Below, piece after piece: positions 2,773-48,610 of a stretch of 48,610 nucleotides of DNA. The stretch spans positions 1 to 48,610 of the forward strand of contig JALWBS010000005.1 in NCBI GenBank assembly GCA_027037025.1, in the 5' to 3' direction. The position numbers and the translations under genes were made by a program. Below the pieces are notes generated by a model that was not told the origin of the DNA, made no database searches, and saw only the letters and a list, made by a program, of their open reading frames with translations. Position 1 is the stretch's first letter. Each line of letters begins with the position of its first letter. The stretch is from Desulfurococcales archaeon. GTDB lineage: Archaea > Thermoproteota > Thermoprotei_A > Sulfolobales > Ignisphaeraceae.

Positions 2773-2957
2773 GTTCGCACCAGCTCAAAGATGGTGTGGT
2801 CTTGCTATAAAACGCTGGGTAGTTTCTATACTCAATTAGTTCTAATAGTTGCAGAGATCCTATTATATATCTAATATATAGGAGAGAGCTATGGTGACTG
2901 CGCGGTGGATCCGAGTAATCGTTCCGCTTATATATCCCGCTAGATAGATCTGCTCCG

Positions 2958-3452
2958 GTGTCGCCCGTGTCTAACCAAATCAATTCTAACCTAAACATAG
3001 GATCGGTTGAAAACGCATTGAAGCACATCGTCAAGTACCTAGTCATTAAGAAGCTGAGCGGCGATGATACCTATATCGAGGCTATGAAGATGTACTTCCT
3101 AAACAACCTTAGTCCGAGCGATATCGCGGTAGCACTCGGAGAATCGAAGAACGTTGCTCACTCCGTTAGAAATAGAGTATACGAGATACTGAACAAGTTC
3201 AACGCGCCCAAGTCTCCCACGTTCGTAAGAGAGCTTGTTAGAATCGCTCTTAGATGCATCGAGTGGCTGGAGCCAATCCTCGTTAGAGAAAGGGGTTTGT
3301 ATAGATGCAAAGTCTGTGGAGCTTGGATAAGCATGGATAGATACTCTAGGACTAGGCACGTAGCTTATAAACATGCCAACCTAGTCAATCGATTGACACG
3401 AACAGCGCTGTCCAAGGCGAAGAACCTTGTCTCCAACCACGAAGATATCTAG
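2958..3452 (+). CDS. HTH + C2H2 zinc-finger DNA-binding protein (paralog family, 3 copies in window)
   Basis: LSPSDIAVALGESKNVAHSV helix-turn-helix segment, then YRCKVCGAWI...HVAYKH (C-x2-C...H-x4-H). Paralog of 37048..37608 and 32853..33311. Alignment with the paralog favours a TTG start at 3018. Confidence 0.7.
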   Translation: MSPVSNQINSNLNIGSVENALKHIVKYLVIKKLSGDDTYIEAMKMYFLNNLSPSDIAVALGESKNVAHSVRNRVYEILNKFNAPKSPTFVRELVRIALRCIEWLEPILVRERGLYRCKVCGAWISMDRYSRTRHVAYKHANLVNRLTRTALSKAKNLVSNHEDI

Positions 3453-8016: not shown

Positions 8017-8382
8017 ATGGTTAAGGCATTGATAGAGGTTGAGTGCCCCAAGTGCCGAGCTATACACATCGTCAATCTAGATAAGTTCGAGAGCAAGATA
8101 GCCATTAGCTGTAGCTGCGGAGCGCTGTTCGTAGTGAAGGTGTCGATCACTGTAAAGGACTTCAGCGAGCTACTATCGATGCTAAACGAGTTCGAGCAGT
8201 GGCTTAGAGAGGAGAAGAAGCTTGCTAAAGACACCGCTAGAGCGTATGCTAGAAGCATAGAGAGCTGGATACGTAGAGGTAGCTACCCTAGATGCACTGC
8301 TCCGTTCGATCACTTCAAAGAGTTTCTAGAGAAGAAAAAGGGTTGGAACCCAGCGCTAGCGAGGTACGCACTCGAAATCTAG
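8017..8382 (+). CDS. zinc-ribbon protein with integrase SAM-like (core-binding-like) segment
   Basis: CPKC...CSCG zinc ribbon. FEQWLREEKKLAKDTARAYARSIESW resembles the N-terminal SAM-like domain of tyrosine recombinases. Starts 2 nt after the recombinase stop. Confidence 0.5.
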   Translation: MVKALIEVECPKCRAIHIVNLDKFESKIAISCSCGALFVVKVSITVKDFSELLSMLNEFEQWLREEKKLAKDTARAYARSIESWIRRGSYPRCTAPFDHFKEFLEKKKGWNPALARYALEI

Positions 8383-9791: not shown

Positions 9792-9853
9792 GCCACCGAG
9801 AAGCTGAGGAAACAAGGAAACAAAAGGATTTATGTAATGTATCCTTCGTGCTT

Positions 9854-37208: not shown

Positions 37209-37608
37209 TGTGTCCCCTAATGTACTCAACGAGATCGCTTGCTATTAAGCTCATCCACGTTAATACCCTTCCCGCGTGGTGCGTGAGCAGATGATTGGAC
37301 GCTGCGGCGGCTCCATAGAGCTTTCTCCCGCATAGCTTGCATCTGTAGCAACCGTCCTCGGTCTTGTCGAATACGGGCTCTATCGAGCTTGTGAGCTTGA
37401 GGAGGATGTCGGTGTACTTAGACATGACGCGCCATCTTCTATCCGATTCCAAGCTACTGAGGATCGACCTAACCGTGTTCTTCGAAACCGATAGCGCGTG
37501 GGCTATCTCGCTCGGTGACAAACCCTTTATGTATCGGAGCTCGACCACCTTGAAGAACAGATCTTGGTTAGTCAAGCGACGAACCACGAACTGCTTTAAG
37601 AACTTCAT
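37048..37608 (-). CDS. HTH + C2H2 zinc-finger DNA-binding protein (paralog of 2958..3452)
   Basis: LSPSEIAHALSVSKNTVRSIL HTH and YRCKLCGRKL...HLLTHH zinc finger. ATG 6 nt downstream of leader motif 37615..37629. The last ~50 codons are low-complexity and overlap 36801..37208. Confidence 0.7.
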   Translation of the reverse strand: MKFLKQFVVRRLTNQDLFFKVVELRYIKGLSPSEIAHALSVSKNTVRSILSSLESDRRWRVMSKYTDILLKLTSSIEPVFDKTEDGCYRCKLCGRKLYGAAAASNHLLTHHAGRVLTWMSLIASDLVEYIRGHNGVQEERGAEREGAGSEARVQKGYTANATERHSGVDEAEDEGVRVAHTGIRCS

Positions 37609-37816
37609 GCGGATCCCCGTGAGAAAAAGATGATTTTATCTCGATGCACCTACGGATCTCTCCCCACTCGTGGCACAGAACCATGAGGGCTCGATAAGCC
37701 TCGTTCTCGCTGATGAGGTTGTAGGAGAGCAGATCCTTTATGCGTCTAAGAATCTTCTTCCGCTCCTCCTCCGCTTCCTCATCGATCCACTTCTCCAAGT
37801 AGCTAATCATATCCAT
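37568..37816 (-). CDS. hypothetical small protein
   Basis: Starts 3 nt after the stop of 37819..38724. Its 3' end reads through leader motif 37615..37629 (..SFSHGD..) and overlaps the next gene. Confidence 0.45.
   Translation of the reverse strand: MDMISYLEKWIDEEAEEERKKILRRIKDLLSYNLISENEAYRALMVLCHEWGEIRRCIEIKSSFSHGDPHEVLKAVRGSSLD
37615..37629 (-). promoter_or_regulatory. cassette leader motif copy
   Basis: Minus strand: CTTTTTCTCACGGGG-atccgc-ATG(37608). Confidence 0.75.
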
Positions 37817-37818
37817 GG

Positions 37819-38724
37819 CTACGCACCGGGTAGCCTCTTCTCCAACAGCATCTCGGATGCTAGCCTAGACATATCTCTGAAAACGTCGTAGTTCCTAGTC
37901 TCCGCAACGACCCTAGTAACGCTCTGGAAAGCCGTTGCCAAGCTATAGCCGTGCTTCTGCACGAACCTTCTGTAGCTCGACCTAAGTATGTAGGCAACGT
38001 ATCTAGGAACCTTCGCGGCGATGCCCTCTATCCAATCGTCGAGCTCCTGCGGCGAGAGCTCTATTCTAGCTAGCTCCGAAACCGAGTCGATTATCCACGT
38101 AGCCTCGTCGCTGAGCTTCGCAACCACCTCGTCCACGGCGCGGATAACGCTGAGCAGAACCTTCCGTAGCTCGCCTCGGTGCACAGTCCTCACGCTCGTA
38201 GCCATCCAGTTAGCGAGCATCTCGTTGCCGCACTCAGCGAACCTAACGATTGGATACACCTTTATGCTGTGAACACCGGTGTTAGCGTTCGAAACCGCGA
38301 CGTAGAACACGTTGTCGAACACCGTAACCACCCTCCACAGAAACACCGTTCTAGCGCTGAACCTCTTCACGTGATCCGGCTCGGCTTCTAGAAACCTGCT
38401 AACGGCATCGACGAGTATACGGTGAGGAACAGCCACGTAGCTATCGCTCGTAGCCCTAACAACGTAGAGCGCGCCGTCGAACATAACTAGGCATCTCAGC
38501 ATGAGGGGCTTCCTACTCACGCGCTCTATCAACGCCTTCTTGAATCTATCCGGGTTGCTAACCACATTGCTTCTACTCATGTTCACCAATCGCGCGAGCT
38601 GCGAGTAGCTACGTCCTTTAAACACGATTCTGGTACCATCCTTCGTCACGACGATGCTCCTCCTATACACAGTTACGGAGTCCACCCTATCCAGAACGAA
38701 GTCTACGAACGTGGGTCTCTCCAT
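37819..38724 (-). CDS. hypothetical protein (301 aa)
   Basis: ATG 6 nt downstream of leader motif 38731..38745. Confidence 0.65.
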   Translation of the reverse strand: MERPTFVDFVLDRVDSVTVYRRSIVVTKDGTRIVFKGRSYSQLARLVNMSRSNVVSNPDRFKKALIERVSRKPLMLRCLVMFDGALYVVRATSDSYVAVPHRILVDAVSRFLEAEPDHVKRFSARTVFLWRVVTVFDNVFYVAVSNANTGVHSIKVYPIVRFAECGNEMLANWMATSVRTVHRGELRKVLLSVIRAVDEVVAKLSDEATWIIDSVSELARIELSPQELDDWIEGIAAKVPRYVAYILRSSYRRFVQKHGYSLATAFQSVTRVVAETRNYDVFRDMSRLASEMLLEKRLPGA

Positions 38725-38730
38725 GGATCT

Positions 38731-38745
38731 CCCCCGTGGAAAAAG
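38731..38745 (-). promoter_or_regulatory. cassette leader motif copy
   Basis: Minus strand: CTTTTTCCACGGGGG-agatcc-ATG(38724). Confidence 0.75.
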
Positions 38746-38771
38746 AGGGCAGAGACTATAGTTATGGTCAT

Positions 38772-39893
38772 TTATGTTCGTTTTAGTCCTTTTAAGGCTA
38801 TGAGGTATGCTGATGCTGTGTGGCGATCAAGACCAAATCTCTTCATGATCTCGTCATGTTCCCTAGAATGCGTTGTGCCCTTAGGATCGACGTACCTCAC
38901 CTCCATAGCGTAGAGCGGTGCTTTCCACGCTATTCGCTCTATGATTGAGCTTCGGAACATCGAGACCTTCCAGTTCCACTTCCTCCCCCTTCTCTCACCA
39001 TTGCGTATCCAGTAGTACCTGAGATACCCAACTATCTCCGGGTTTTCCAGGAATATCGTTGAGACACCTGCGTGGTAGAGCCACTTCAGCATTCTGTGGA
39101 TTACCTCGCCTATGATGCTCCAAGCCCTCTTCCTCTTAACGCCCATGTGAGCCGCTCCATCAAGCCAGAAGGTTCTAATCATCCTGAGCTTACCGCCGGG
39201 AGAAACCACGGCGACGTCGAGACGATCAACGTTGACGTCTATCCCTGCAACGATGTCGCTGAGTGGATCGTCGTATCGCTTCATCACCTGGTAGTAGAGC
39301 TGGTAAGGCACCATAACTTGCATCTCACCAGCAACATGAAGACCATACTTACCCATTCCGTAGTCAGAGATGTAGATCCTTGCGGGGTAGCCAACGCGCT
39401 TGGCATTCGCCTCCGATATGAGCGTCTCGAGTAGTCGTCTGTACCCCTTCGGCACGACGTATCTGAGCTCTACAGTATCCGAACTCTTGTCGTACCAGAA
39501 GGTCAGAACCCTGGTTCTGCCTAGATCCACGAGCCTTATGTTTAGGTTGCCCCTAGCATGGGGCTCCCCATCGCTCTGAAACAGCAACCATTCCTTGAGC
39601 TCCAGATCCCGTACGTCGACACCCAGCGCTTTTGCGCTACGAAGCGTTGACCACACGAGCTTGAGCACCCCATCGACGTAGCGCCTATTAGGAAGCACAT
39701 CGTAGCACCTGGATCTCATAGCCTTGAGGAACCGCGTCTCAGGAAGCTCGGCTAGCACAAGCTCGCTCTTCACGACCATCAGCACGCGATGAGCAACGAT
39801 CTTCGACAGCCAGGCAGTGGAGAGCAGTCGCGAAGCGACGAGTCCATTCGCGTGGAAAGGCAGAGCAATAGTGACATACCTCGGGCTCTTCAC
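38772..39893 (-). CDS. tnpB: TnpB/OrfB-like RuvC-fold protein lacking the usual zinc finger
   Basis: Candidate RuvC triad: GIDVNVD, IFLENPE, GLDRHTASAYLIA. 373 aa. No CxxC...CxxC between the second and third motifs (VDPKGTTHSREHDEIMKRFG). GTG start about 21 nt downstream of a palindromic TATA. Confidence 0.65.
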   Translation of the reverse strand: MKSPRYVTIALPFHANGLVASRLLSTAWLSKIVAHRVLMVVKSELVLAELPETRFLKAMRSRCYDVLPNRRYVDGVLKLVWSTLRSAKALGVDVRDLELKEWLLFQSDGEPHARGNLNIRLVDLGRTRVLTFWYDKSSDTVELRYVVPKGYRRLLETLISEANAKRVGYPARIYISDYGMGKYGLHVAGEMQVMVPYQLYYQVMKRYDDPLSDIVAGIDVNVDRLDVAVVSPGGKLRMIRTFWLDGAAHMGVKRKRAWSIIGEVIHRMLKWLYHAGVSTIFLENPEIVGYLRYYWIRNGERRGRKWNWKVSMFRSSIIERIAWKAPLYAMEVRYVDPKGTTHSREHDEIMKRFGLDRHTASAYLIALKGLKRT

Positions 39894-39907
39894 GCTTCCC
39901 GACCATA

Positions 39908-39921
39908 GGGTATATATACCC
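39908..39921 (-). promoter_or_regulatory. perfect 14-bp palindrome GGGTATATATACCC (TATA box candidate for the TnpB-like gene)
   Basis: Centre lies about 21 nt upstream of GTG 39893, compatible with a leaderless or short-leader mRNA. Confidence 0.5.
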
Positions 39922-39941
39922 GAGAGTTATTAAACGTTGTA

Positions 39942-40021
39942 GTGACCCCCGCTGGCTCGCTGACCCCCCGGGATGAAGGGGCTGGCGGGGAGAAACCGCT
40001 GTGAACCCAGCTAGGCGACCC
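39942..40021 (-). other. GC-rich non-coding block upstream of the TnpB-like gene (possible structured RNA, IS end or protein-binding array)
   Basis: About 80 nt, visibly GC-richer than its surroundings. CCCCGC...GCGGGG can pair. Three copies of GTGA(A)CCC(CC) lie at 39942, 39961 and 40001, echoing the ATG-proximal part of the cassette leader. Confidence 0.25.
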
Positions 40022-40054
40022 TAAAAGAACCTAAAATATTGGGAATGACCCTAG

Positions 40055-40282
40055 CTAGGGGAGCGGTTGGGTACGAACCCGCTCTATCCTCAGCTTTATG
40101 TTTTCCTCTACGCAGTCGTAGAAAGCTGTAGCCTCTCTACACAGCTCGATCTCGTCGTAGTAATCCGGCTTCACGACGTAGACATCTCCGGATCGAGTCT
40201 TTATCACCACTTCGAACTCGCTTATCTTAACGCTCTCAACGTCCTTGAGAACTATGTCCCTATCGAGTTCGAGCACAGCCAT
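40055..40282 (-). CDS. hypothetical small acidic protein (cassette-array gene, 75 aa)
   Basis: ATG 5 nt downstream of leader motif 40288..40304. Confidence 0.6.
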   Translation of the reverse strand: MAVLELDRDIVLKDVESVKISEFEVVIKTRSGDVYVVKPDYYDEIELCREATAFYDCVEENIKLRIERVRTQPLP

Positions 40283-40287
40283 GGAAA

Positions 40288-40304
40288 CCCCCGTGAGAGA
40301 AAAA
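40288..40304 (-). promoter_or_regulatory. cassette leader motif copy
   Basis: Minus strand: TTTTTCTCTCACGGGGG-tttcc-ATG(40282). Confidence 0.75.
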
Positions 40305-40337
40305 TGTTTATTGGGGTTTGAGAACAGGGCATCGTAC

Positions 40338-40658
40338 TCACTTCGCCTTTCGCTCGCTGGCGCAGATCTCCTCTATCCTGCGCCTAACATCTTCGTGGAT
40401 CTCTAGCTTGGCTTCGACGTTGCACAGCGTTTCGAACATGTTGTCTAGGCACGTGATTAGATCGGTATCCCCTTTCTTCGCCGCTCTGTAGCACAGCGAC
40501 GCCATCGATAGGGTGCAGAGGTACTCCAACGTACCCTCTCTCTTCTTTTTCATCTCTGCTATCTCCCACAGGTGCTTGCACAGCGGGTGATCCTTAGCTT
40601 CTTCACATGCCTTCCTAGCGTTGAGAGCTATTTCATAGGCTAGGTTCGGGGGGATCAT
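40338..40658 (-). CDS. hypothetical Cys-rich helical protein (106 aa)
   Basis: Starts 3 nt after the stop of 40661..41392. Third gene of a motif-led three-gene unit. Confidence 0.55.
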   Translation of the reverse strand: MIPPNLAYEIALNARKACEEAKDHPLCKHLWEIAEMKKKREGTLEYLCTLSMASLCYRAAKKGDTDLITCLDNMFETLCNVEAKLEIHEDVRRRIEEICASERKAK

Positions 40659-40660
40659 AC

Positions 40661-41392
40661 CTAACCACCAAAAAGCTGAGCCGAGCTACGTAGCTTCTCC
40701 TTCACGGTGTCGAGGATCATCGACTCTATTCTCTGTCTCTCAACAACGTATCCAAACCTCTTCAAATCGTCCAGAACTTGATTGTGCTTCAACCCTACGT
40801 AGAACAGCACCGGGTCGAAGCATAGTCTAGCCTGCTTGTTCCTGACTATGAACGCCGCGCTCTTGAGCACGCCGTCGTACATAGCCCAGCTAGCGAGGTA
40901 GCTCATCCCAAGAACCGTGGGTGCACCACGTTCGGAGATGTACTTGTTCAGTATCTTCATCACCTCGCTCAGCTTGGCAACGGCGCTATCTCTGAGCTCG
41001 GCAATGGAGAACCCCACCATTAGCTGGATGCCGAGGTCTTCCATGCTACAAACGTCTAGCAGAACCGATACTCCTAGGGTTAGTAGCCTGAGCGATACGA
41101 AGCCGAACCTCTCCATCATGGCGTGTACCAGCGCTATCATGGTGAGAACGCTGTTGTTGTCGAACACACCGTGTAGCTCATCGACGAAGCTCATCACATC
41201 GTCTATCCTCTGCTCCCCGAACATCCTAGGTATTAGCCACGTCATCGCGTCGGTGGCTAGCTCAACATCCTCTTTCTTCACCTCTATCCCTAGCTTAGTC
41301 AAGGTATCCCTCGCTCTAGCGAAGAGATCCGCTACGGCGTCTCGCAGTTGCTTAGGTGCCTCACTCAACTTGGTACACCCTAACGTTCTCAC
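40661..41392 (-). CDS. hypothetical helical protein (243 aa)
   Basis: GTG start overlapping the 3' end of 41361..41585. No leader motif of its own. Confidence 0.55.
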   Translation of the reverse strand: MRTLGCTKLSEAPKQLRDAVADLFARARDTLTKLGIEVKKEDVELATDAMTWLIPRMFGEQRIDDVMSFVDELHGVFDNNSVLTMIALVHAMMERFGFVSLRLLTLGVSVLLDVCSMEDLGIQLMVGFSIAELRDSAVAKLSEVMKILNKYISERGAPTVLGMSYLASWAMYDGVLKSAAFIVRNKQARLCFDPVLFYVGLKHNQVLDDLKRFGYVVERQRIESMILDTVKEKLRSSAQLFGG

Positions 41393-41585
41393 CTGACTTG
41401 TCCCCTATCGCAACCACTCTACCCGCTATGACAACCACCTTGTCGCCGATTGTCTTGGTCTCGACGCTATCCTCGCCGAGCGCTGATAGGAACACCCTAG
41501 CCGCGATAGTCATATCCACCTTCCTCCACCTACTAAATCCTAGAACTTTGAGTATCTCCTCATCGCTTGGATCTGAGGAGACCAT
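41361..41585 (-). CDS. hypothetical small protein (74 aa)
   Basis: ATG 4 nt downstream of leader motif 41590..41600. Confidence 0.55.
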   Translation of the reverse strand: MVSSDPSDEEILKVLGFSRWRKVDMTIAARVFLSALGEDSVETKTIGDKVVVIAGRVVAIGDKSGENVRVYQVE

Positions 41586-41589
41586 GGAT

Positions 41590-41600
41590 CCCCCCGTGAA
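41590..41600 (-). promoter_or_regulatory. cassette leader motif copy (T-run missing)
   Basis: Minus strand: TTCACGGGGGG-atcc-ATG(41585). Confidence 0.6.
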
Positions 41601-41625
41601 TCAGTGGAGTAAGAGATCCATAAAA

Positions 41626-42294
41626 CTACGTGAGGTAGAGAACCATCACGGGCTTCTCCCTAACTACGAAGCCCAGAACCCTAGCCTTGGTAAAACCGTT
41701 CACTATGGGTAGTCGTACGCGAAGCTCGTTTCCATCGATACGCATCTCCACAGCCTCACCACCGAACTGGCGAAGCATCGATAGCAGAACCTTGGCTGGA
41801 AACCTAGAAACGATCGTGTCGATCTCCTTAACCAACCTCCTATACTCCTCGATCTGCCGCTTAACGAAGCTCTCGACCCTACGCAGGCTGTAGTACACCG
41901 CGTGGTACCTATCCCCATCGCTACGAATCTCGAAGCATATCGACGCAACGCTCTCATCGTCCTCGTCAAACACGTCGATGCACTCATCGCTCTCCAAAAC
42001 CTTGTCCTCGCCCACACCAGCTAACCTAGTCACCAACCCAGCGATCTCACCACGAATATCCACCTCAAGCTCTTGCATAGCCGCAACAACATCGCTACAG
42101 CCCTCCTCAGACCGACTACACTCCACCTCCAAACACTTGGCTCCAACAACTATCTTGGCACGTACACAGTCTTGGCTCTCCACAACATCGATGATCGCAT
42201 AGCTATCTCCCCTACGGTACTCTCTCAGCATAGACTCCACAGCATCACCAATCTTAGAAGGATCCAACGGTTCCCCATCTAGGAAAACCCTCAT
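41626..42294 (-). CDS. hypothetical acidic protein (222 aa)
   Basis: Start re-called to ATG 42294, 6 nt downstream of leader motif 42301..42316. The ORF-track extension to 42342 reads through the motif. Confidence 0.6.
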   Translation of the reverse strand: MRVFLDGEPLDPSKIGDAVESMLREYRRGDSYAIIDVVESQDCVRAKIVVGAKCLEVECSRSEEGCSDVVAAMQELEVDIRGEIAGLVTRLAGVGEDKVLESDECIDVFDEDDESVASICFEIRSDGDRYHAVYYSLRRVESFVKRQIEEYRRLVKEIDTIVSRFPAKVLLSMLRQFGGEAVEMRIDGNELRVRLPIVNGFTKARVLGFVVREKPVMVLYLT

Positions 42295-42300
42295 TCCGAA

Positions 42301-42316
42301 CCCCGTGAAGAAAAAG
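42301..42316 (-). promoter_or_regulatory. cassette leader motif copy
   Basis: Minus strand: CTTTTTCTTCACGGGG-ttcgga-ATG(42294). Confidence 0.75.
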
Positions 42317-42334
42317 AGCGTTGAAAATATAGAT

Positions 42335-42832
42335 CTAAGCACACCAATCCGTGGATCCGTGCTCCGGCGGCACGTTTGCGTAGCTGAGCACGAGTGCTAG
42401 AGCCATCGCCTTCCTTCTATCGGATCCATAGCACTGTATCTTGCAGTCGTAGACCTCGCCATCGATCTTCGCCCACGCTTGGCATCCGCGAGCCTCTTCG
42501 AAGCATATGATCCCTATCTCGATCCTCCCATCCCTCGAAACCAGCTTTATACGCCTAGACCCTTTGCCACCGAGTTCTTCCACCCTAACGTCATCGACCG
42601 CGAACAGCTTCTTAACCGCGGCAATCAGCTTATCGATGTTTATAGCGCTTATCCTACCCGGATCACGTACATAGAAATAGATAGCGCTAACACCAGCTCT
42701 ATAATCCCTCAACTCGTTCAGTAGCTGAAGAGCCTCTTCACCAAGGTTCTCGGCAACGACGTTCCTAGCGCTTTCTCTCATCTTCTCAATCTCTTTAAGA
42801 ACTTCATCTAACGAAACATCTTTGGGAGCCAT
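42335..42832 (-). CDS. hypothetical protein (165 aa)
   Basis: ATG 5 nt downstream of leader motif 42838..42853. Confidence 0.6.
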   Translation of the reverse strand: MAPKDVSLDEVLKEIEKMRESARNVVAENLGEEALQLLNELRDYRAGVSAIYFYVRDPGRISAINIDKLIAAVKKLFAVDDVRVEELGGKGSRRIKLVSRDGRIEIGIICFEEARGCQAWAKIDGEVYDCKIQCYGSDRRKAMALALVLSYANVPPEHGSTDWCA

Positions 42833-42837
42833 GTGAA

Positions 42838-42853
42838 CCCCCGTGAGAAAAAG
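42838..42853 (-). promoter_or_regulatory. cassette leader motif copy
   Basis: Minus strand: CTTTTTCTCACGGGGG-ttcac-ATG(42832). The 24 nt at 42830..42853 are identical to 48272..48295. Confidence 0.8.
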
Positions 42854-43093
42854 TCATTTTCTTCCCAATACGCATCGAACCGGAGACGGAATGACCTCCC
42901 TAGCAATTCTACACACGTCGAGCCGCACCCTCGAATCGTTGATGGGTAGCTCCACCATCAGCGTTAACCTACCGCAGATATCCCGCTTAAGCGATATCTT
43001 CGCACTTGGAAACGCCTCACGCAACCTGCGCTCCACCGTAGCCGCGTAGCGAAGAATAGTGAATCGATCGGTCGAGCGAATGTATATCCTCAT
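42854..43093 (-). CDS. hypothetical small basic protein (79 aa)
   Basis: Start set to ATG 43093 by analogy: a degenerate leader TTTTTATGGGGG-tgggt-ATG lies at 43099..43110. The ORF-track start is 43168. Confidence 0.45.
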   Translation of the reverse strand: MRIYIRSTDRFTILRYAATVERRLREAFPSAKISLKRDICGRLTLMVELPINDSRVRLDVCRIAREVIPSPVRCVLGRK

Positions 43094-43098
43094 ACCCA

Positions 43099-43110
43099 CC
43101 CCCATAAAAA
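43099..43110 (-). promoter_or_regulatory. degenerate cassette leader motif copy
   Basis: Minus strand: TTTTTATGGGGG-tgggt-ATG(43093). CAC is replaced by AT. Confidence 0.4.
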
Positions 43111-43121
43111 CAATTCTATCC

Positions 43122-43502
43122 TTATTCCTCGGTATAACCACAGCTATCCCTCCACCTCCCTTCCCCAACCTTCATCAAGACCTTCACCGCGGTTCCGTAA
43201 GTCTTAGACACGGCGAAGTACACGAGGTTGTACTGATCGTCGATATCCTTGCAAAGAAGAATCTCGATACCGTCATCGCTCTCGATCGCCGCAAGTCTAC
43301 GACCCGAAGCTACGTGCTTGATCGATTCGATGAGTACATCCACAAGAGAAACTCGCTTGACGCAGAACTCAGTATTCGAATCCACATCCCTTCCGCAGAT
43401 ATAGGTATCGGGAGCATCTAGGCTAAGACCCTCGATCGCAACCGGAAAAGGACTATCTATCCTAGCATACGCCACTTCCGTAGATCCCCTCTCAACCTCC
43501 AT
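43122..43502 (-). CDS. hypothetical protein (126 aa)
   Basis: ATG 43502, 5 nt downstream of leader motif 43508..43527. The ORF-track GTG 43508 lies inside the motif. Confidence 0.55.
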   Translation of the reverse strand: MEVERGSTEVAYARIDSPFPVAIEGLSLDAPDTYICGRDVDSNTEFCVKRVSLVDVLIESIKHVASGRRLAAIESDDGIEILLCKDIDDQYNLVYFAVSKTYGTAVKVLMKVGEGRWRDSCGYTEE

Positions 43503-43507
43503 ACACA

Positions 43508-43527
43508 CCCCCGTGAAGCGAGAAAAA
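43508..43527 (-). promoter_or_regulatory. cassette leader motif copy (6-nt insert)
   Basis: Minus strand: TTTTTCTCGCTTCACGGGGG-tgtgt-ATG(43502). Confidence 0.7.
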
Positions 43528-43531
43528 CGTG

Positions 43532-43885
43532 CTATGCACCGAGATCAATGATTACAATCGGTTTACCACCTACGGCACACTCAACAACGTTGTCGTAAGC
43601 ATACATCCTCACACCACCTAGCTTCTCGCAACACTCGCTAGGATCATTAGCATCTCTGCAAACCGGTATCGGAGCTCCACCACGCGGATCGTATATCCAG
43701 AACCTGAACCTCTTCACCAACTCATCTATGCGTCTCACCACATCATTGCTGGGCTCTCTACCCATCTCCACCGCATCCATGTAGCTCTTCAACGCTATCA
43801 GATAGTCTTCGGAAAGCGGACGAAGAATTTCAACCCTCTCTAGCCCTAGCACCCTAGCAATTTCGCAAGCTATATCCCGATCCAT
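43532..43885 (-). CDS. hypothetical protein (117 aa)
   Basis: ATG 43885 gives the usual 6-nt spacing from leader motif 43892..43912. An alternative ATG lies at 43891. Confidence 0.55.
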   Translation of the reverse strand: MDRDIACEIARVLGLERVEILRPLSEDYLIALKSYMDAVEMGREPSNDVVRRIDELVKRFRFWIYDPRGGAPIPVCRDANDPSECCEKLGGVRMYAYDNVVECAVGGKPIVIIDLGA

Positions 43886-43891
43886 GTACAT

Positions 43892-43912
43892 CCCCGTGTA
43901 GGGATGGAAAAA
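43892..43912 (-). promoter_or_regulatory. cassette leader motif copy (9-nt insert)
   Basis: Minus strand: TTTTTCCATCCCTACACGGGG-atgtac-ATG(43885). Confidence 0.65.
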
Positions 43913-44350
43913 CTATGGTTTGGGTAGGTCTAGACCTGTGAGCGTGGGTAGATCCACGAGTGTCTTCATCCAATCCGGGTAGTTGTCTTGGTACTCGAAC
44001 CGCTTACCGGTTTCCGTCGATGCTACCACGATCCTGTCATGACCAGCCGACTTCGAGTACTCGTAGATCACCGTAACGATATCGAATATTCCTTCACCGA
44101 TGATTCTAAGGACTAGCGCCTCGGCAATTCTTAGGAACTCAAGAGCTTTATCAACGTACTTAGCCTCGATGTATGCTATGCCATGATCGAACTCTATTCT
44201 ATCCGGATCCACTTGAACATCGTTGTACAGCAAATTGACGAGATTGTCTAGTACCGGCAATACATGGATTTCAATCCTAGTCCTTGTGTAACACACATTC
44301 ATATCGGATGTACACCAAAATACTCCCTCATCCGGTTCCGTCGCAACCAT
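43913..44350 (-). CDS. hypothetical protein (145 aa)
   Basis: ATG 44350, 5 nt downstream of leader motif 44356..44369. The ORF-track GTG extension to 44401 reads through the motif. Confidence 0.6.
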   Translation of the reverse strand: MVATEPDEGVFWCTSDMNVCYTRTRIEIHVLPVLDNLVNLLYNDVQVDPDRIEFDHGIAYIEAKYVDKALEFLRIAEALVLRIIGEGIFDIVTVIYEYSKSAGHDRIVVASTETGKRFEYQDNYPDWMKTLVDLPTLTGLDLPKP

Positions 44351-44355
44351 GTATA

Positions 44356-44369
44356 CCCCCGTGGAAAAC
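44356..44369 (-). promoter_or_regulatory. cassette leader motif copy
   Basis: Minus strand: GTTTTCCACGGGGG-tatac-ATG(44350). Confidence 0.7.
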
Positions 44370-44372
44370 GTT

Positions 44373-44786
44373 TTACCATACGGAGTACGGGATTTCACCA
44401 CAAGTTTCTTTCACGAGCATTCTCACGTATCCATAGGACATTAAGTACCGCGCCATCGACGCCAACATCATTTCGCATAGATGCTCGTTCTTCAGTAACC
44501 ACTCAATGATCTCAGTACATCGTCGAAGAACCGTGGCTGGAGGAAAACTCCTTCTAAACTCAATACAACACTTATGCACACCATTCTCTATCCTTATACG
44601 TATCAGAGCCAACGACATCTCGACAACGTTCTTTGGATATTCAACGAGTGATATCCTCGATGTCACCTTCTCAATTCTACAAGGCTCAGCAGATTTTACA
44701 ATGCCATTCTCTTCGATTAGCACAATCACTTTCACAAGCTCGTTCTCGCTTTCAACATGCCTAAACACATAGGTAGAGCTACCCAT
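44373..44786 (-). CDS. hypothetical protein (137 aa)
   Basis: ATG 44786, 8 nt downstream of leader motif 44795..44808. Confidence 0.55.
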   Translation of the reverse strand: MGSSTYVFRHVESENELVKVIVLIEENGIVKSAEPCRIEKVTSRISLVEYPKNVVEMSLALIRIRIENGVHKCCIEFRRSFPPATVLRRCTEIIEWLLKNEHLCEMMLASMARYLMSYGYVRMLVKETCGEIPYSVW

Positions 44787-44794
44787 TTTATTCA

Positions 44795-44808
44795 CCCCGT
44801 GGAAAAAG
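44795..44808 (-). promoter_or_regulatory. cassette leader motif copy
   Basis: Minus strand: CTTTTTCCACGGGG-tgaataaa-ATG(44786). Confidence 0.7.
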
Positions 44809-44815
44809 AATGTGT

Positions 44816-45445
44816 TTATCGAGGCTCTTTCTCGAAGGTGAAGCTAGCACACTTGAACACTCCATGAGCGTTGCACACGTAGTTACAGTAATAGAGATGT
44901 TCGTATATACACACATCGTCTAGGCACAGCTCGATCGTTCCGACACCGCTGTTGAAATCGAAGTCCTTGTAGTCCTTGGAGAAGTTCACTCCCCACGCCT
45001 CTCCAATAACGACAAATGGATAGGCATCTCCGCCACGGCTAGACTTTGCAAAGGCATCGATTCCGCACGACTCTAGGTATCGAGCAACTAATCTGAGTAG
45101 AATCGAATCATCTTCGAGGCTCAGACTAGCGATCGCATCAGTAAGCTTACCATCGCTCTTCACAACCTTTGGAACGATGAAGTACACCGATCCATGACCG
45201 TCGTATAGCTCGATAACCGCGAGATCCGTCTTCTCCTCAATCAATTTCCATAGCTCAGATACGTAGTTCCTGAGCTCGTCGTACATCTCATCGCTTAGAT
45301 CGTACTTCTCCCTCATCTCATCGAGTACGCCGTAAATCCCTTCATCGCTTAGAACCAGCGTTCTCCCACGAATCATGTTCTTCAGAATTTCCTTCGCGAA
45401 CTCGTATTTCAAATCGGTTGATTGAGATACAACTATTTGACTCAT
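44816..45445 (-). CDS. hypothetical protein (209 aa)
   Basis: ATG 45445, 6 nt downstream of leader motif 45452..45471. The ORF-track extension to 45544 is Cys/Ser-rich and overlaps the small TM ORF in another frame. Confidence 0.6.
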   Translation of the reverse strand: MSQIVVSQSTDLKYEFAKEILKNMIRGRTLVLSDEGIYGVLDEMREKYDLSDEMYDELRNYVSELWKLIEEKTDLAVIELYDGHGSVYFIVPKVVKSDGKLTDAIASLSLEDDSILLRLVARYLESCGIDAFAKSSRGGDAYPFVVIGEAWGVNFSKDYKDFDFNSGVGTIELCLDDVCIYEHLYYCNYVCNAHGVFKCASFTFEKEPR

Positions 45446-45451
45446 GTCAAA

Positions 45452-45471
45452 CCCCCGTGATCCATAAAAAC
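45452..45471 (-). promoter_or_regulatory. cassette leader motif copy (insert variant)
   Basis: Minus strand: GTTTTTATGGATCACGGGGG-tttgac-ATG(45445). Confidence 0.65.
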
Positions 45472-45638
45472 TAGCATCGACGTAGCTTGACACACTCCAC
45501 GAATATGCATAGAAACATTGTGAACAGCACAACGATGCCGCCAATCAACATGTATAGAGCCGCATCGACACCAATAACAAGACTAATGAGCAGAGCGATG
45601 ATGATGAGCACCACCGTAGCTAGAACAACGCTCCTCAT
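45471..45638 (-). CDS. small membrane protein (55 aa, MRSVVLATVVLIIIALLISLVIGVDAALYMLIGGIVVLFTMFLCIFVECVKLRRC), not in ORF track
   Basis: Hand-translated. The ATG overlaps the TGA stop of 45635..45913 (ATGA). Two hydrophobic helices. Its stop lies inside the next leader motif. Confidence 0.5.
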   Translation of the reverse strand: MRSVVLATVVLIIIALLISLVIGVDAALYMLIGGIVVLFTMFLCIFVECVKLRRC

Positions 45639-45913
45639 CCTCCCCTCCCCTTGAGATTTTCAAGTATTATTTTCCACCACATGCATGGGTGTTCTATCCA
45701 TATCCACCACCACTTGATCCAAAACGCTAAGTCATCGAGATCCCTACGTTGCTTCGGATCGTACCACACCTCCTTGGCATGTATATACGTGAAGATCTCT
45801 AACCACCATTGAATGCTATCGAAGAAAAGCACCGTTCGAGGAACGTGATATCCACGAGAGCGTTTTTCGAGCAATAAACGCCATGGATCAAAAGGTGTCC
45901 TTATAATCTCCAT
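45635..45913 (-). CDS. Trp-rich small protein ending in GRGG (92 aa)
   Basis: ATG 45913, 5 nt downstream of leader motif 45919..45931. Contains FWIKWWWIWIEHPCMWWKII and has the C-terminus LKGRGG. Confidence 0.55.
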   Translation of the reverse strand: MEIIRTPFDPWRLLLEKRSRGYHVPRTVLFFDSIQWWLEIFTYIHAKEVWYDPKQRRDLDDLAFWIKWWWIWIEHPCMWWKIILENLKGRGG

Positions 45914-45918
45914 TCTAA

Positions 45919-45931
45919 CCCCCGTGAAAAA
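45919..45931 (-). promoter_or_regulatory. cassette leader motif copy
   Basis: Minus strand: TTTTTCACGGGGG-ttaga-ATG(45913). Confidence 0.8.
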
Positions 45932-45935
45932 TGAG

Positions 45936-46496
45936 TTATGATATGTAGAGAAGTGTAGATGGACGAAGGGTTTGTAGTGGTGGCGGCGGAACAATCACGT
46001 CGCGGTGCGGTGATAGAGCGGCGATGGGGATGGATAGCATGCGATAGTCTAGATTAAACAACATGTATACTATCGGAATCACCTTGTCATTTATGGTCTT
46101 GCGAAACTCGATGCCAAACATGCCGATTAGCTTGAAGATGGCGTCGATCTCGTTGAACGCTACAAGATACTCACCAATCAACTCAGCAATTTTGCGCAGA
46201 GCCTCTTCAAGTTCACGCTGATAAACGCTCGTTATGATATACACCATGGACGAATACTCCCTTTCAACTGTTTTCTGAATCATGACGATAAGTTCGCTAC
46301 ATTGCTTCAACACAACATAGCTAATCGTTATTTTATAGATTCGCAATGTTCCATGTGGAACAACGATCGATAATGAGCATTTGCGATCACTGCAATAATG
46401 ATCGACATAGCCAACGTATGTCGAAACCTCATGGATTTTCTCGAAGTAATTACATAGCTGTGAAAACACGTTATACAATGGATCCAGAGGTTTCAT
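45936..46496 (-). CDS. hypothetical protein (186 aa)
   Basis: ATG 46496, 5 nt downstream of leader motif 46502..46515. Confidence 0.6.
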   Translation of the reverse strand: MKPLDPLYNVFSQLCNYFEKIHEVSTYVGYVDHYCSDRKCSLSIVVPHGTLRIYKITISYVVLKQCSELIVMIQKTVEREYSSMVYIITSVYQRELEEALRKIAELIGEYLVAFNEIDAIFKLIGMFGIEFRKTINDKVIPIVYMLFNLDYRMLSIPIAALSPHRDVIVPPPPLQTLRPSTLLYIS

Positions 46497-46501
46497 AAAC
46501 A

Positions 46502-46515
46502 CCCCCGTGAAAAAG
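46502..46515 (-). promoter_or_regulatory. cassette leader motif copy
   Basis: Minus strand: CTTTTTCACGGGGG-tgttt-ATG(46496). Confidence 0.8.
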
Positions 46516-46580
46516 AATGCAATTCAACGCTATTAAATAAAAATAAAATTTGTTTTGGATGGAAAGAGGATTTAGAGATG

Positions 46581-46853
46581 TTATCCGGCGATATCGAGCT
46601 TTTCAACACGGATAGTAATATTCTCGTTTCTCGATCTTAACTCGTTGATCTTCTGCTCGAAGTCCATCGGACTAACAGGGTTGTCATTTACGAACACACG
46701 TATCTTGCTCCAACCCTTGGATCTAGCAATTTCAATGATTTTCTGCTTTATTTCGCTAGGACTCATCCCTCGAATGCTGATCTCTTCATTTTCTACTACT
46801 AGTTTTTCAGACGGTGTTATGTTCCAAGTTTGTTCTACATTCCATTCACTCAT
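46581..46853 (-). CDS. small protein with beta-grasp (ThiS/MoaD/ubiquitin-like) sequence pattern and C-terminal Gly (90 aa)
   Basis: ATG 46853, 8 nt downstream of leader motif 46862..46874. ...KLVVENEEISIRGMSPSEIKQKIIEIARSKGWSKIRVFVNDNPVSP...NENITIRVEKLDIAG ends exactly at Gly. Confidence 0.55.
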   Translation of the reverse strand: MSEWNVEQTWNITPSEKLVVENEEISIRGMSPSEIKQKIIEIARSKGWSKIRVFVNDNPVSPMDFEQKINELRSRNENITIRVEKLDIAG

Positions 46854-46861
46854 ACCCCACA

Positions 46862-46874
46862 CCCCCGTGAAAAA
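46862..46874 (-). promoter_or_regulatory. cassette leader motif copy
   Basis: Minus strand: TTTTTCACGGGGG-tgtggggt-ATG(46853). Confidence 0.8.
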
Positions 46875-46884
46875 TAATAGAGTG

Positions 46885-47082
46885 TTAATCGATTTGTTTT
46901 AGTGCATCGAGAATTTGGCGATGCACTTCATGAGATATCGGTACCTCGATCTCCTTCGATGGTAGTACAATAACTAGTTTGCTGGATACAATGCGAATTA
47001 TTGGATAGTTACCGTTGCACGCCGGCATTAATACCAGTTCACCATGTTTATTATCGATACACAAGCCGTACTTGCATTTCAT
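46885..47082 (-). CDS. hypothetical small protein (65 aa)
   Basis: ATG 5 nt downstream of leader motif 47088..47100. Confidence 0.5.
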   Translation of the reverse strand: MKCKYGLCIDNKHGELVLMPACNGNYPIIRIVSSKLVIVLPSKEIEVPISHEVHRQILDALKQID

Positions 47083-47087
47083 ACAAA

Positions 47088-47100
47088 CCCCGTGGAATAG
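47088..47100 (-). promoter_or_regulatory. cassette leader motif copy (T-run degenerate)
   Basis: Minus strand: CTATTCCACGGGG-tttgt-ATG(47082). Confidence 0.6.
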
Positions 47101-47113
47101 GCAACGAGCGGGG

Positions 47114-47134
47114 TATACATATAATATATGTATA
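47114..47134. promoter_or_regulatory. perfect 21-bp palindrome TATACATATAATATATGTATA flanked by G runs (TATA candidate)
   Basis: Arms at 47114..47123 and 47125..47134 are exact reverse complements. Lies about 35-50 nt upstream of ATG 47082. Confidence 0.45.
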
Positions 47135-47183
47135 GGGGGTGAATCGTTTGGTTGGAACCTAACTAGAATAAAGGGATTGAATT

Positions 47184-47197
47184 CCCGTGAAGAAAAA
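47184..47197 (-). promoter_or_regulatory. orphan cassette leader motif copy (no ORF behind it)
   Basis: Minus strand: TTTTTCTTCACGGG-aattcaatcc... No ATG follows. Lies 4 nt after the stop of the E2-like gene. Confidence 0.55.
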
Positions 47198-47200
47198 TGG

Positions 47201-48274
47201 TTAGAAATCGATGCATTTGTCTATGCTCACACCATCATCGTACAGATCGTTGAAGATTTCTGGAGTGTACGCCGATGTCGATGGTATCGATAGTATCTTC
47301 ACGATCTTGTCAATTATTGACCTTAGCACATCAGTGGTTAGTCTATCGTAAGACTTAAGAATTTCTCGCTCCGCAGATCCTAGACACACTATACCATCGT
47401 CACTTATGTTCGGATGATAATACTCCTTATCCTTGTACAGAAGGAAAGCGTCGCCTTTCACCTCTACTAGCGAGTAATGTTTCTCCGATATGTTGAATAC
47501 TAATGTTATTGTTTTTACCACTACCTTGATCGGTGGCACGGCTACTAAGCATCCCCTTCTATGGTTAGCGATGACATTCGTTTCTATCTCCTTCTCGATG
47601 CTGAACGTGATGATGAGCCTATCTTCCTCGGTTCTGATCTCCTCAATATTCAACTCTTTCGGAGATAAATCTATTGGTGGTATGGACGTTATGTACAATG
47701 GTAGATACCTCAGCTCATTCAAATATTCGAACGACAATCTTCTCAGCTCAAAGCGCTTGGTGATATCCGCTCCTAGAACCTTCAGCTTCAGCATCTTCAT
47801 AGCATTGACCGCAAATAACCATAGTGATGGCACTTTGTTATGCGTTATGTCGGATATCACAAAGGTGTTGCGCTTAGGATCGTAGCACATATATTCGGTA
47901 CAATAACCATGTTTTGTTCGCATATCGGTTGTGCACGGATGCCCTTCGTTGAAGATCCTAAGTATCTTATCGATATCGAATTCATCTTCTATTCTATGTT
48001 CGTAGATGTCGGTGCGAATGCCGTCAATGTAGCAGTATATCAGAACAGCGTTTCGCGGTATTTCTTTTAGCTCGCCGTGATTTATCACATACTTAATTCC
48101 TAGTTCTTTCAATTCCTTGGCGAACATCTCCACAAAGATTCTAGAATATTCGTAATCGGTGTGCACTATGCCATTGGTTGTTATTATGTCTTCGCAATCT
48201 ACACACATCTTCCTTAGATACTCAACATCATCAGTATTAGTATCAGAATGAGTTTGGATTATCCATTCGGACAT
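47201..48274 (-). CDS. two-domain protein with C-terminal E2/UBC-like (ubiquitin-conjugating enzyme fold) domain (357 aa)
   Basis: ATG 48274, 5 nt downstream of leader motif 48280..48295. KEYYHPNISDDGIVCLG (His codon 47414..47416, Cys codon 47384..47386), then TTDVLRSIIDKIVKILSIPSTSAYTPEIFNDLY, parallels the UBC core YHPNIxxxGxICL...vlxSIxxLLxxPNxxxPxxxEiaxxy. A KRFELRRLSFEYLNEL helix lies at the domain start. Confidence 0.7.
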   Translation of the reverse strand: MSEWIIQTHSDTNTDDVEYLRKMCVDCEDIITTNGIVHTDYEYSRIFVEMFAKELKELGIKYVINHGELKEIPRNAVLIYCYIDGIRTDIYEHRIEDEFDIDKILRIFNEGHPCTTDMRTKHGYCTEYMCYDPKRNTFVISDITHNKVPSLWLFAVNAMKMLKLKVLGADITKRFELRRLSFEYLNELRYLPLYITSIPPIDLSPKELNIEEIRTEEDRLIITFSIEKEIETNVIANHRRGCLVAVPPIKVVVKTITLVFNISEKHYSLVEVKGDAFLLYKDKEYYHPNISDDGIVCLGSAEREILKSYDRLTTDVLRSIIDKIVKILSIPSTSAYTPEIFNDLYDDGVSIDKCIDF

Positions 48275-48610
48275 GTGAACCCCCGTGAGAAAAAGATAGG
48301 ATGTCGGATAGATTGAACACATGGTTCAATCTAAACGATCGGTATAGTGATATCATTAGATAGACAATTATCGAAGCCGCGAGAATAGCGGTAGCATCAT
48401 CATCGATCTTGCGATCGATAACCACGATCATGTAATTGCCGCGATCATATACACGCTTAACCTTCTCAACATCGCTTTTAGATACTAAGAATAACTTTAT
48501 CGATGGTCTGAACTCGCTGAACATCGCTAGTAGCAAATCCACATCATTGGTAATAACCACATCGATTTTGAACGGTCGCAACAACGATAGGTATTCATAG
48601 AATTGGTGAT
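48243..48610 (-). CDS. hypothetical protein, 5' end open at window edge
   Basis: The frame is open from 48608 downward (HQFYEYLSLLRPFKIDVVITNDVDLL...). The ORF-track TTG 48584 is only the first possible start. The 3' end reads through leader motif 48280..48295. Confidence 0.4.
   Translation of the reverse strand, partial: HQFYEYLSLLRPFKIDVVITNDVDLLLAMFSEFRPSIKLFLVSKSDVEKVKRVYDRGNYMIVVIDRKIDDDATAILAASIIVYLMISLYRSFRLNHVFNLSDILSFSHGGSHVRMDNPNSF
48280..48295 (-). promoter_or_regulatory. cassette leader motif copy
   Basis: Minus strand: CTTTTTCTCACGGGGG-ttcac-ATG(48274). Confidence 0.8.

Follow-up and report, generated by a model that had tools for sequence, protein, structure and literature searches.

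A gene for what is very probably a ubiquitin-like tag, one part of a proposed conjugation kit, on the contig of a probable archaeal virus

The window analysed in this work is the whole of contig JALWBS010000005.1 (assembly GCA_027037025.1), a stretch of 48,610 nucleotides. Close to its right end, on the minus strand, lies a small gene (46581 to 46853) for a protein of 90 amino acids (aa) which is predicted to be a ubiquitin-like protein (Ubl), and upstream of it is the gene of a protein resembling the E2 (conjugating) enzymes of ubiquitin systems. Other contigs are referred to by handles of the form L001. The features of the region are listed here by their window positions.

46581 to 46853, minus strand: Ubl gene, the subject of this work; 90-aa protein, predicted β-grasp fold, encoded already in the 'mature' form
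46862 to 46870, minus strand: Shine-Dalgarno (SD)-like motif TCACGGGGG upstream of the Ubl start, from a motif scan
46885 to 47082, minus strand: open reading frame (ORF) of 65 aa between the E2-like gene and the Ubl gene
47083 to 47200, minus strand: repeated intergenic element of about 90 nt with a TATA-rich palindrome, TATACATATATTATATGTATA; also present in L001 at 1-100 and 655-745
47201 to 48274, minus strand: gene of the E2-like protein, 357 aa, with a UBC catalytic core motif in the C-terminal approx. 150 aa
48243 to 48610, minus strand: gene of a 184-aa protein cut by the window end, the C-terminal two thirds being in the window; complete in L002 at 366-920

The product of the Ubl gene is MSEWNVEQTWNITPSEKLVVENEEISIRGMSPSEIKQKIIEIARSKGWSKIRVFVNDNPVSPMDFEQKINELRSRNENITIRVEKLDIAG; it terminates in ...EKLDIAG, and the TAA stop codon follows immediately after Gly90. 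The closest relative of this protein, P0002, is 82% identical to it at the amino acid and 72.7% at the nucleotide level, the differences being distributed as 18, 11 and 44 over codon positions 1, 2 and 3. Since the substitutions show this codon-position bias and the synonymous sites between the two genes are saturated, the ORF is a genuine coding gene. No support was obtained for the antisense ORF at 46645-46902.

The fold of the protein was modelled by AlphaFold2 from a two-sequence alignment. The model (mean predicted local distance difference test score, pLDDT, 85.7; predicted template-modelling score, pTM, 0.72) has the topology ββαββαβ, with strands at residues 16-20, 23-26, 51-55, 58-60 and 79-85 and helices at 32-45 and 62-74 according to DSSP. 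The first 15 residues, which contain a Trp, are disordered in it, and the five C-terminal residues, LDIAG, form a free tail. When the model was compared with the PDB by Foldseek, nearly all of the top 50 matches were β-grasp proteins (SUMO-1/2/3, ubiquitin including that of Caldiarchaeum, 6fj7, ThiS, 3cwi, and PB1 domains), with probabilities of 0.97-1.0 and template-modelling (TM) scores of 0.5-0.62; the best E-value belonged to SUMO-2 (7p99_C, 4.5e-3, TM 0.53/0.58). In a library of viral structures the top matches were the ubiquitin-like domains of giant viruses, pestiviruses and baculoviruses. The predicted fold of the Ubl is β-grasp, as assigned by structure prediction only.

Relatives of the Ubl are few. 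A word-index search returned P0002 as the one relative, while an exhaustive HMMER search of 1.84 billion representative proteins yielded five further homologs with 36-46% identity. Ala-Gly followed by the stop codon is found in 7/7 members of the family, A89 and G90 being two of just eight invariant columns, and a further Ubl, encoded in L019, terminates in ..LDYAG. A terminal Gly alone is unremarkable, as 6 of the 67 ORFs scanned in the window have one; the case for the Ubl is stronger than chance because Ala-Gly-stop is invariant and because genes of E1 (activating), E2-like and JAB (deconjugating) type recur in the neighbourhood. A β-grasp fold and a stop codon directly after the terminal Gly had been claimed in a preliminary description of this DNA, which had also guessed the strand and helix elements. 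The model and its Foldseek matches bear out the fold, the guessed elements agree with those of AlphaFold and DSSP, the stop codon is where it was said to be, and the Gly, whose conservation the description had proposed as a check, is kept in each homolog found. As separate observations, the second gene downstream of the Ubl, an ORF of 92 aa rich in Trp (45635-45913, minus strand), ends in ...LKGRGG, a ubiquitin-like RGG terminus, and a 243-aa ORF at 40661-41392 ends in ...LFGG.

The catalytic core of the E2-like protein reads H287-P-N289-I...C297-L-G, and the residues H287, N289, I290, C297, L298 and G299 are invariant in five homologs, the first motif being HPN in three of them, HEN in one and HDN in another. 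The order of elements of a classical E2, namely HPN, the catalytic Cys at a distance of 7-8 residues, the crossover helix and a P-N pattern, is present in the protein. Comparison with four canonical E2s by hhalign gave probabilities of 94-94.5% and E-values of about 1e-7 over a span covering HPN, Cys, helix and PN; a profile search of the PDB returned E2 enzymes only, but with E-values of 0.5-1.9. The word-index search for homologs found the protein itself and P0009 only. From its motifs the protein would be expected to work like an E2, while its score for PF00179 is sub-threshold and membership of that family is not claimed. The N-terminal approx. 200 aa form a conserved domain: in an alignment of the three full-length homologs the residues G111, Y124, Y131, F138, D142, T144 and H145 are invariant. 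This part, with its D142-x-T144-H145 motif, had no match to any family or structure searched, and it could be a candidate substrate-binding or E3-like module.

Genes of the same kinds were found together on other contigs. In L008 (a 42-kb contig) the order is Ubl, a JAB protein of 244 aa, an E2-like protein of 350 aa and a ThiF-type E1 of 223 aa, and in L006 it is E2-like protein (336 aa), JAB (230 aa), ThiF-type E1 (240 aa) and Ubl. Pairwise BLAST showed that the 350-aa and the 336-aa proteins are homologous to the E2-like protein of the window and that the JABs and the E1s of the two loci are mutually homologous. The 65-aa ORF, which had no Pfam match, had no BLAST match in L006 or L008 either and is not conserved in these related cassettes. 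A metagenome scan with a JAB profile added L019 (Ubl, E2-like, E1, JAB) and L021 (E2-like protein with HHPNIDPQIPKTVCLG, E1, JAB), and in L001 the order is Ubl, two small genes, E1 and JAB. All four genes are adjacent in L008, L006 and L019, and a ThiF-type E1 adjoins the Ubl in L001, L006, L008 and L019; the linkage recurs in at least four independent loci.

This close subfamily was met only on metagenomic contigs, none of which is assigned to a cellular genome, and virus-type genes are present on L008 (an MCM helicase) and L006 (a tape-measure-like protein). More distant cassettes were detected by scanning IMG/VR with an E1 profile: each of six viral contigs (L010-L015) carries a small Ubl-like ORF, a protein of 250-295 aa with an H-x-H/N...C-(L/W/M)-G pattern, an E1 and a JAB. 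The C-termini of the small β-grasp-like ORFs of the distant cassettes are AG, AGR, AGC, AGICK and, once, AA; such variable short extensions are what one would expect of Ubls whose Gly is, where necessary, exposed by a peptidase. A scan of IMG/VR with the Ubl gave no match, nor did an exact-DNA scan of public collections with a fragment of the E1. The genome-contig scan with the E1 gave, among the matches listed, three distant fragments of bacterial metagenome-assembled genomes, which are uninformative on the host. L010-L015 together with L023, L025, L028 and L029 make up a wider and more divergent set of viral contigs with cassettes of Ubl-like protein, Cys protein, E1 and JAB; some of them are of low GC content and carry RFC- and PCNA-like genes, and in L023 the Ubl is fused to a C-terminal domain of approx. 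140 aa.

The E1s of the close subfamily, among them the 198-aa protein of L001, matched Pfam ThiF (PF00899) with 68.7, 67 and 59.7 bits, the cutoff being 28.1, and carry the conserved motifs GxGGVG, NxNRLP and DA(T/V)D, as in the Rossmann-type adenylation domain of that family. With 198-240 aa they amount to a bare adenylation domain having no CYS domain. Sequence matches in the PDB were TcdA, UBA5, MoeB, ThiF, MccB, Uba4, SAE2 and BubCD. In canonical E1s, BilD and Cap2 the catalytic Cys belongs either to the crossover loop or to a CYS domain; among 13 homologs of the viral E1 no Cys is conserved, the equivalent position being occupied by C, T, W, L, F, Y, H or A. In the same homologs the crossover-loop Tyr in W..GY..PS is invariant, and by the precedent of Y370 in BubCD, not by homology, it may be a mechanistic lead. 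In case of the JAB protein, the residues E67, H114, H116, S124 and D127, which correspond to the JAMM site (E...HxHx7SxxD), are invariant in 17 homologs. The sole Pfam family matched was Prok-JAB, in 9/17 homologs with a best E-value of 3e-6; the JAMM copy of the window virus scored only 15 bits, and the JAB profile had no sequence match in the PDB.

Two public contigs encode an E2-like protein identical to that of the window. One contig, L002, is 100% identical to window positions 45591-48610 (3020 nt) and continues 552 nt past the right end. The extension completes the 184-aa gene and contains, upstream of it, the C-terminal half of a JAMM protein (...VVIHKHPSGISSFSATDD...), so that a JAMM C-terminus, HKHPSGISSFSATD, lies upstream of the E2-like gene. 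L001 is from the same assembly as L002. At its end is the N-terminal half of the same JAMM protein, and the overlap between the two contigs is exactly 55 nt, a length typical of an assembly k-mer. L001 also carries the 198-aa E1 and a second Ubl. We think that the two contigs adjoin each other in a single genome and do not come from two diverged strains, because the 55-mer is identical although the two Ubl genes are saturated at synonymous sites. The order of the genes reconstructed in this way is Ubl-2, a 59-aa gene, a 104-aa gene, E1, JAB, the 184-aa gene, the E2-like gene, the 65-aa gene and Ubl-1. Ubl-2 (P0002, L001 103-375) lies approx. 4.2 kb upstream of Ubl-1, the gene of the window; the virus probably has two diverged Ubl paralogs which flank the enzyme genes. 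A circular contig was also considered: the cut ORFs at the two window ends would join in frame, but the right-end extension seen in L002/L003 does not match the left end, and this candidate was rejected.

In the preliminary description the Ubl gene was placed two genes downstream of the E2-like gene, and the two were taken for a minimal virus-encoded Ubl/E2 pair which would use an E1 of the host. The position was right, the 65-aa ORF (47082..46885) being the gene between the E2-like gene (48274..47201) and the Ubl. As to the pair, its two members are supported by the present results, but the proposal was an understatement: the related loci and the extending contigs carry E1 and JAMM genes too, and what the virus has is probably a full cassette of Ubl, E1, E2 and JAB with two Ubl copies. 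The N-terminal MSEW, which the description had pointed out as common to the Ubl and the E2-like protein, is a real match and is no evidence linking both genes. Of the two families only that of the Ubl conserves it, and its Ser is encoded differently in the two genes (AGT vs TCC), for which reason it was rejected as a sign of relationship.

The 184-aa gene next to the E2-like gene gave a weak similarity to E1. In a single-sequence search against a hidden Markov model of 13 viral E1s its product scored 8.5 bits (E 7e-5), a score reached by none of 500 shuffled sequences; with a 3-sequence E1 profile hhalign gave no significant result. The alignment keeps register between the DxD/NxNR and the DxxD regions, with the Gly-rich loop and the catalytic residues replaced. 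As a lead only, the protein may be an E1-like paralog which has degenerated and lost its activity, comparable in this to the inactive adenylation domain that eukaryotic E1s contain.

The genes of the cassette share putative regulatory signals with their surroundings. Further copies of the SD-like motif TCACGGGGG precede the E2-like gene (48280-48288) and the gene following the Ubl (46502-46510). In total 20 matches were counted where 5.8 were expected; they are clustered on the minus strand between 37.6 and 48.3 kb, a block of co-oriented genes nearly all of which are preceded by the motif, and the same motif precedes the genes of L001. Written out for the minus strand of 37600-48300, the signal is (TTTTT)CACGGGGG(TG), placed 5-10 nt ahead of nearly all gene starts and very uniform. 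The intergenic element of approx. 90 nt, with its palindrome written as TATACATATAT(T)ATATGTAT(A), recurs upstream of three cassette transcription units; in L001 it stands upstream of Ubl-2 and upstream of the unit of the 104-aa gene, E1 and JAB. It is probably a shared promoter/operator candidate, also for the transcription unit which holds the Ubl.

On the basis of these results we consider it likely that the 90-aa protein serves as the Ubl in a protein-conjugation cascade encoded by the virus; very probably the small gene codes for a real ubiquitin-like tag, which belongs to a kit for tagging, activation, conjugation and removal. In the cascade proposed, the Ubl would be made ready to use, its flexible LDIAG tail exposing a free Gly, and Gly90 would be adenylated by the dedicated minimal E1, of which only the ThiF-type adenylation domain exists. 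The activated Ubl would then pass to Cys297 of the E2-like protein, perhaps via the invariant crossover-loop Tyr of the E1, a route which is proposed because the E1 family is without a conserved Cys. The E2-like protein would transfer the Ubl to lysines of target proteins, and the JAMM/JAB metalloprotease would remove it again, the same protease trimming the extra C-terminal residues of the Ubls of relatives. The cassette occupies a terminal block made up of small genes of an early type in one orientation, at a distance from the large genes of the window. As read from this position only, its role is most likely host takeover, in which proteins of the host or the virus would be tagged, for instance for turnover by the proteasome or for re-targeting. 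Proteasomal targeting, virion modification or counter-defence could each be alternatives for the role.

Several points weigh against this interpretation. The cascade is proposed here from sequence and predicted structure. The Ubl model is based on only two aligned sequences, its Foldseek E-values are modest (4.5e-3 at best), and a sequence search of the PDB with the Ubl profile gave no significant similarity to solved Ubls, the output being noise, mostly de novo designed proteins; moreover the terminus is Ala-Gly instead of Gly-Gly. For the E2-like protein, Pfam UQ_con (PF00179) remains below its cutoff of 27 bits (14.8 bits, E 0.022, for the window protein; 19 bits, E 0.0011, for the L006 homolog), the four canonical E2 reference sequences used with hhalign were typed by hand, and the AlphaFold2 model, also from a two-sequence alignment, is poor (pLDDT 38.9), so that the unrelated folds returned for it by a fold search are uninformative. 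Neither E1 nor JAB was found in the window, either by tblastn with the E1 and JAB of L001 or, as ThiF and JAB, in the Pfam scan of the 67 ORFs, and their assignment to the genome of the window goes through one identical overlapping contig and a 55-nt overlap in the assembly graph. Finally, the closest solved relatives of the E1 include the non-conjugating enzymes TcdA, MoeB and ThiF.

The same four components, with a single-β-grasp Ubl having a reactive C-terminal Gly, occur in the bacterial BilABCD systems (Hör et al. 2023/24; Chambers et al. 2023, bioRxiv 10.1101/2023.09.26.559546), and the closest structural matches reported for Type II BilA, namely ubiquitin, SUMO and Caldiarchaeum Ub, are also those of the viral Ubl. 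The cassette might be a Bil-like anti-virus defence carried by a virus or provirus for superinfection exclusion, which tags the structural proteins of competitors and not those of the host. The four-gene content, the patchy distribution of the cassette and the varying gene order among loci agree with such a function, and cassettes of this type have been called highly mobile (PMC1779556). Nevertheless we find this explanation unlikely. Bil is a host-encoded antiphage defence, while the present close subfamily is found on metagenomic contigs only, two of them with virus-type genes, the distant cassettes of L010-L015 are on IMG/VR viral contigs, and the genome scan gave, among the matches listed, distant E1 relatives only. 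BilD is a large E1 with inactive and active adenylation domains and a CYS domain (IAD+AAD+CYS) bearing the catalytic Cys, in contrast to the single domain of the viral E1 (approx. 200 aa; 198-240 aa in the subfamily), which has no conserved Cys. E2s of the Bil/6c/6d type are without the classical His of HPN (PMC1779556), and the viral E2-like protein retains the motif as H-P/E/D-N. Many BilA proteins need pre-processing by the JAB, whereas the viral Ubl ends exactly at the Gly. So, although the four-gene operon is there, neither the IAD+AAD+CYS E1 nor sequence homology to Bil was found; none of the four proteins matched a Bil model in the PADLOC 2023 library, which may lack Bil models, and the PADLOC matches obtained came from the E1s only, to the E1 part of the 'E1-E2' models of Cap2 from the cyclic-oligonucleotide-based antiphage signalling system (CBASS), at 1e-8.

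Two further explanations leave out protein conjugation, and both seem to us less probable still. The Ubl may be a sulfur carrier of the ThiS/MoaD/SAMP type, thiocarboxylated for tRNA thiolation or cofactor synthesis. The best solved relatives of the E1 (TcdA, MoeB, ThiF, Uba4), its lack of a conserved catalytic Cys, the presence of ThiS among the Foldseek matches and the fact that the virus also encodes a tRNA nucleotidyltransferase would all suit this function. On the other hand, no rhodanese, NcsA/TtuA, ThiG or MoaE-type partner is present in the cassettes or the window, and in every case the neighbours include a JAMM peptidase and an E2-like protein whose Cys is invariant. Since the terminus, too, is AG and not the GG typical of sulfur carriers, and the top structural matches are SUMO and ubiquitin, not ThiS/MoaD, we regard a sulfur carrier as quite improbable. 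Least probable of all in our estimate is a β-grasp protein that is not conjugated, such as a chaperone like the lambdoid tail assembly protein I (TAPI) paired with a JAB, or an unrelated protein whose Gly is incidental. Phage TAPI Ubl domains with a terminal Gly do pair with JAB in the absence of E1 and E2 (PMC1779556), and a terminal Gly is common by chance, as the 6/67 ORFs show. But in the present family AG-stop is invariant in relatives at 36-46% identity, at least four loci show linkage of the gene with an intact adenylating E1 and with an E2-like Cys protein, the neighbourhood is without structural genes, and the Ubl has no C-terminal TAPI domain.

The interpretation of the Ubl as part of a conjugation cascade can be compared with other known systems. 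The bacterial Bub pathway (Ye et al. 2024) has a minimal homodimer-type E1 whose crossover loop contains no Cys but an invariant Tyr, Y370, on which the enzyme depends (PMC11601596), and the viral E1 family shows the same pattern. The JAB and the E1 are fused in BubCD and are encoded by adjacent or overlapping genes in the viral cassettes. The Bub E2, however, relies on Ser/His and forms oxyesters, in contrast to the viral E2-like protein with its invariant Cys in the HPN...C context; the Ser protease BubE and the fused BubAB precursor of Bub also set it apart from the viral cassette, and BubCD is only distantly related to the viral E1 (E 1e-4, behind TcdA, UBA5 and MoeB). With the eukaryote-like Ub–E1–E2–(RING E3)–Rpn11 operons of Caldiarchaeum subterraneum and Asgard archaea (PMC3082918, PMC5654768) the cassette shares the archaeal setting, here provisional, a single-domain ubiquitin-like protein, an E2 having both HPN and the Cys, and a deubiquitinase of JAMM type. 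Those systems are cellular, have Ub, UBA and UBC proteins recognisable by sequence and a GG terminus, while the viral proteins score below the family thresholds; the viral E2-like protein has an extra N-terminal domain of approx. 200 aa, and, unlike in those operons, no RING E3 was found.

ThiF/E1-like genes have been described in archaeal viruses before, in the Nidhogg viruses of Helarchaeota, where they were proposed to interfere with Ubl modification (Rambo et al., bioRxiv 10.1101/2021.07.29.454249). For those viruses only E1 homologs were reported, with the ubiquitin and the E2 assumed to be those of the host; in the present case the Ubl, the E2-like protein and the JAMM peptidase come from the virus as well. 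Borgs were reported to carry mainly JAMM peptidases. The modifier is likewise virus-encoded in eukaryotic viruses (baculovirus v-ubi, Ub/E2 of giant viruses), and their proteins were the best matches of the Ubl in the viral structure library. The ubiquitin genes of eukaryotic viruses were captured from eukaryotic hosts and rely on the host cascade; the present cassette, from a virus of prokaryotes, is self-contained in this respect. To our knowledge, complete non-eukaryotic cascades of Ubl, E1, E2 and deconjugase have been found in a few archaeal lineages and in bacterial antiphage systems (Bil, Bub, CBASS Cap2), and all of these are owned by cells. Four features differ from all the described systems found: the architecture of the E1, the HPN-type E2 and its additional domain, the Gly terminus already exposed in the encoded protein and the viral location. 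When the four cassette proteins were compared by tblastn with 50,697 GenBank records of phages and archaeal viruses no match was obtained, the Ubl and the E2-like protein, which alone of the four were searched there, had no named homologs among 5.8 billion proteins, and no annotated relative of the cassette was found in the literature searched.

A prokaryotic virus appears to own a whole Ubl toolkit. If active, it would be the prokaryotic-virus counterpart of the manipulation of ubiquitination by eukaryotic viruses, and a very small, probably thermostable conjugation system of four proteins, in which it could be seen whether an E1 depending on Tyr is able to load a Cys E2; viruses would also join the discussion on the origins of HPN-type E2s and heterodimeric E1s. 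A more far-reaching proposal, which we put forward as possible though doubtful, is that the viruses of one family, with (hyper)thermophilic archaea as hosts, possess a Ubl conjugation machine which is autonomous, is hybrid in chemistry and architecture, and re-programs the proteostasis of the host. It would comprise a minimal, Cys-less E1 working through its crossover-loop Tyr in the manner of bacterial Bub, maybe paired with the 184-aa protein as an inactive paralog, reminiscent of the IAD/AAD pairs in eukaryotic E1s, an HPN-Cys E2 fused to a new candidate substrate-recognition domain of approx. 200 aa (an E2/E3 hybrid), and two Ubl paralogs. If this proposal is true, viruses carry, and perhaps diversify, HPN-type E2s outside eukaryotes, Asgard archaea and Caldiarchaeum.

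Other genes of the window bear on the kind of virus. The AAA ATPase (CDC48-type, 15811-17262, minus strand) is closest to those of Hyperthermophilic Archaeal Virus 2, Sulfolobales viruses YNP1/2, Acidianus tailed spindle virus and Acidianus two-tailed virus (ATV), and the class II CCA-adding enzyme (tRNA nucleotidyltransferase with PolyA_pol and HD domains, 8379-9815, minus strand) has a homolog of 34% identity in Acidianus tailed spindle virus. The homologs of these two proteins in the latter virus point to a large spindle-type archaeal virus, the CCA enzyme itself being of bacterial type. No matches to terminase, portal or HK97 capsid proteins were found among the proteins of the window. A 594-aa protein had no match among GenBank viruses, and the matches of a 584-aa protein were solely to tail-fibre segments of Thermus phages. 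In the window no tRNA genes were found and Rfam gave no matches. The sample labels JOHN19, REYS20 and TREM19 we take, on our own reading, for those of deep-sea hydrothermal studies. Taken together, the window is probably that of an uncultivated archaeal virus of a hot environment, the archaeal part of this assignment being provisional.

Two minor observations were made near the left end. An ORF of 90 aa at 2199-2471 (plus strand) encodes a protein 39% identical to the product of the gene right after the JAB in L019 (7611-7883), of which L019 has a second copy at 2847-3107; it may be an accessory gene of the cassette. At 975-1157 a 61-nt unit is present in tandem in three copies, and at a distance of 340 nt (1494-1550) a copy of 57 nt lies in inverted orientation; these repeats could be a candidate origin or terminal-structure element.

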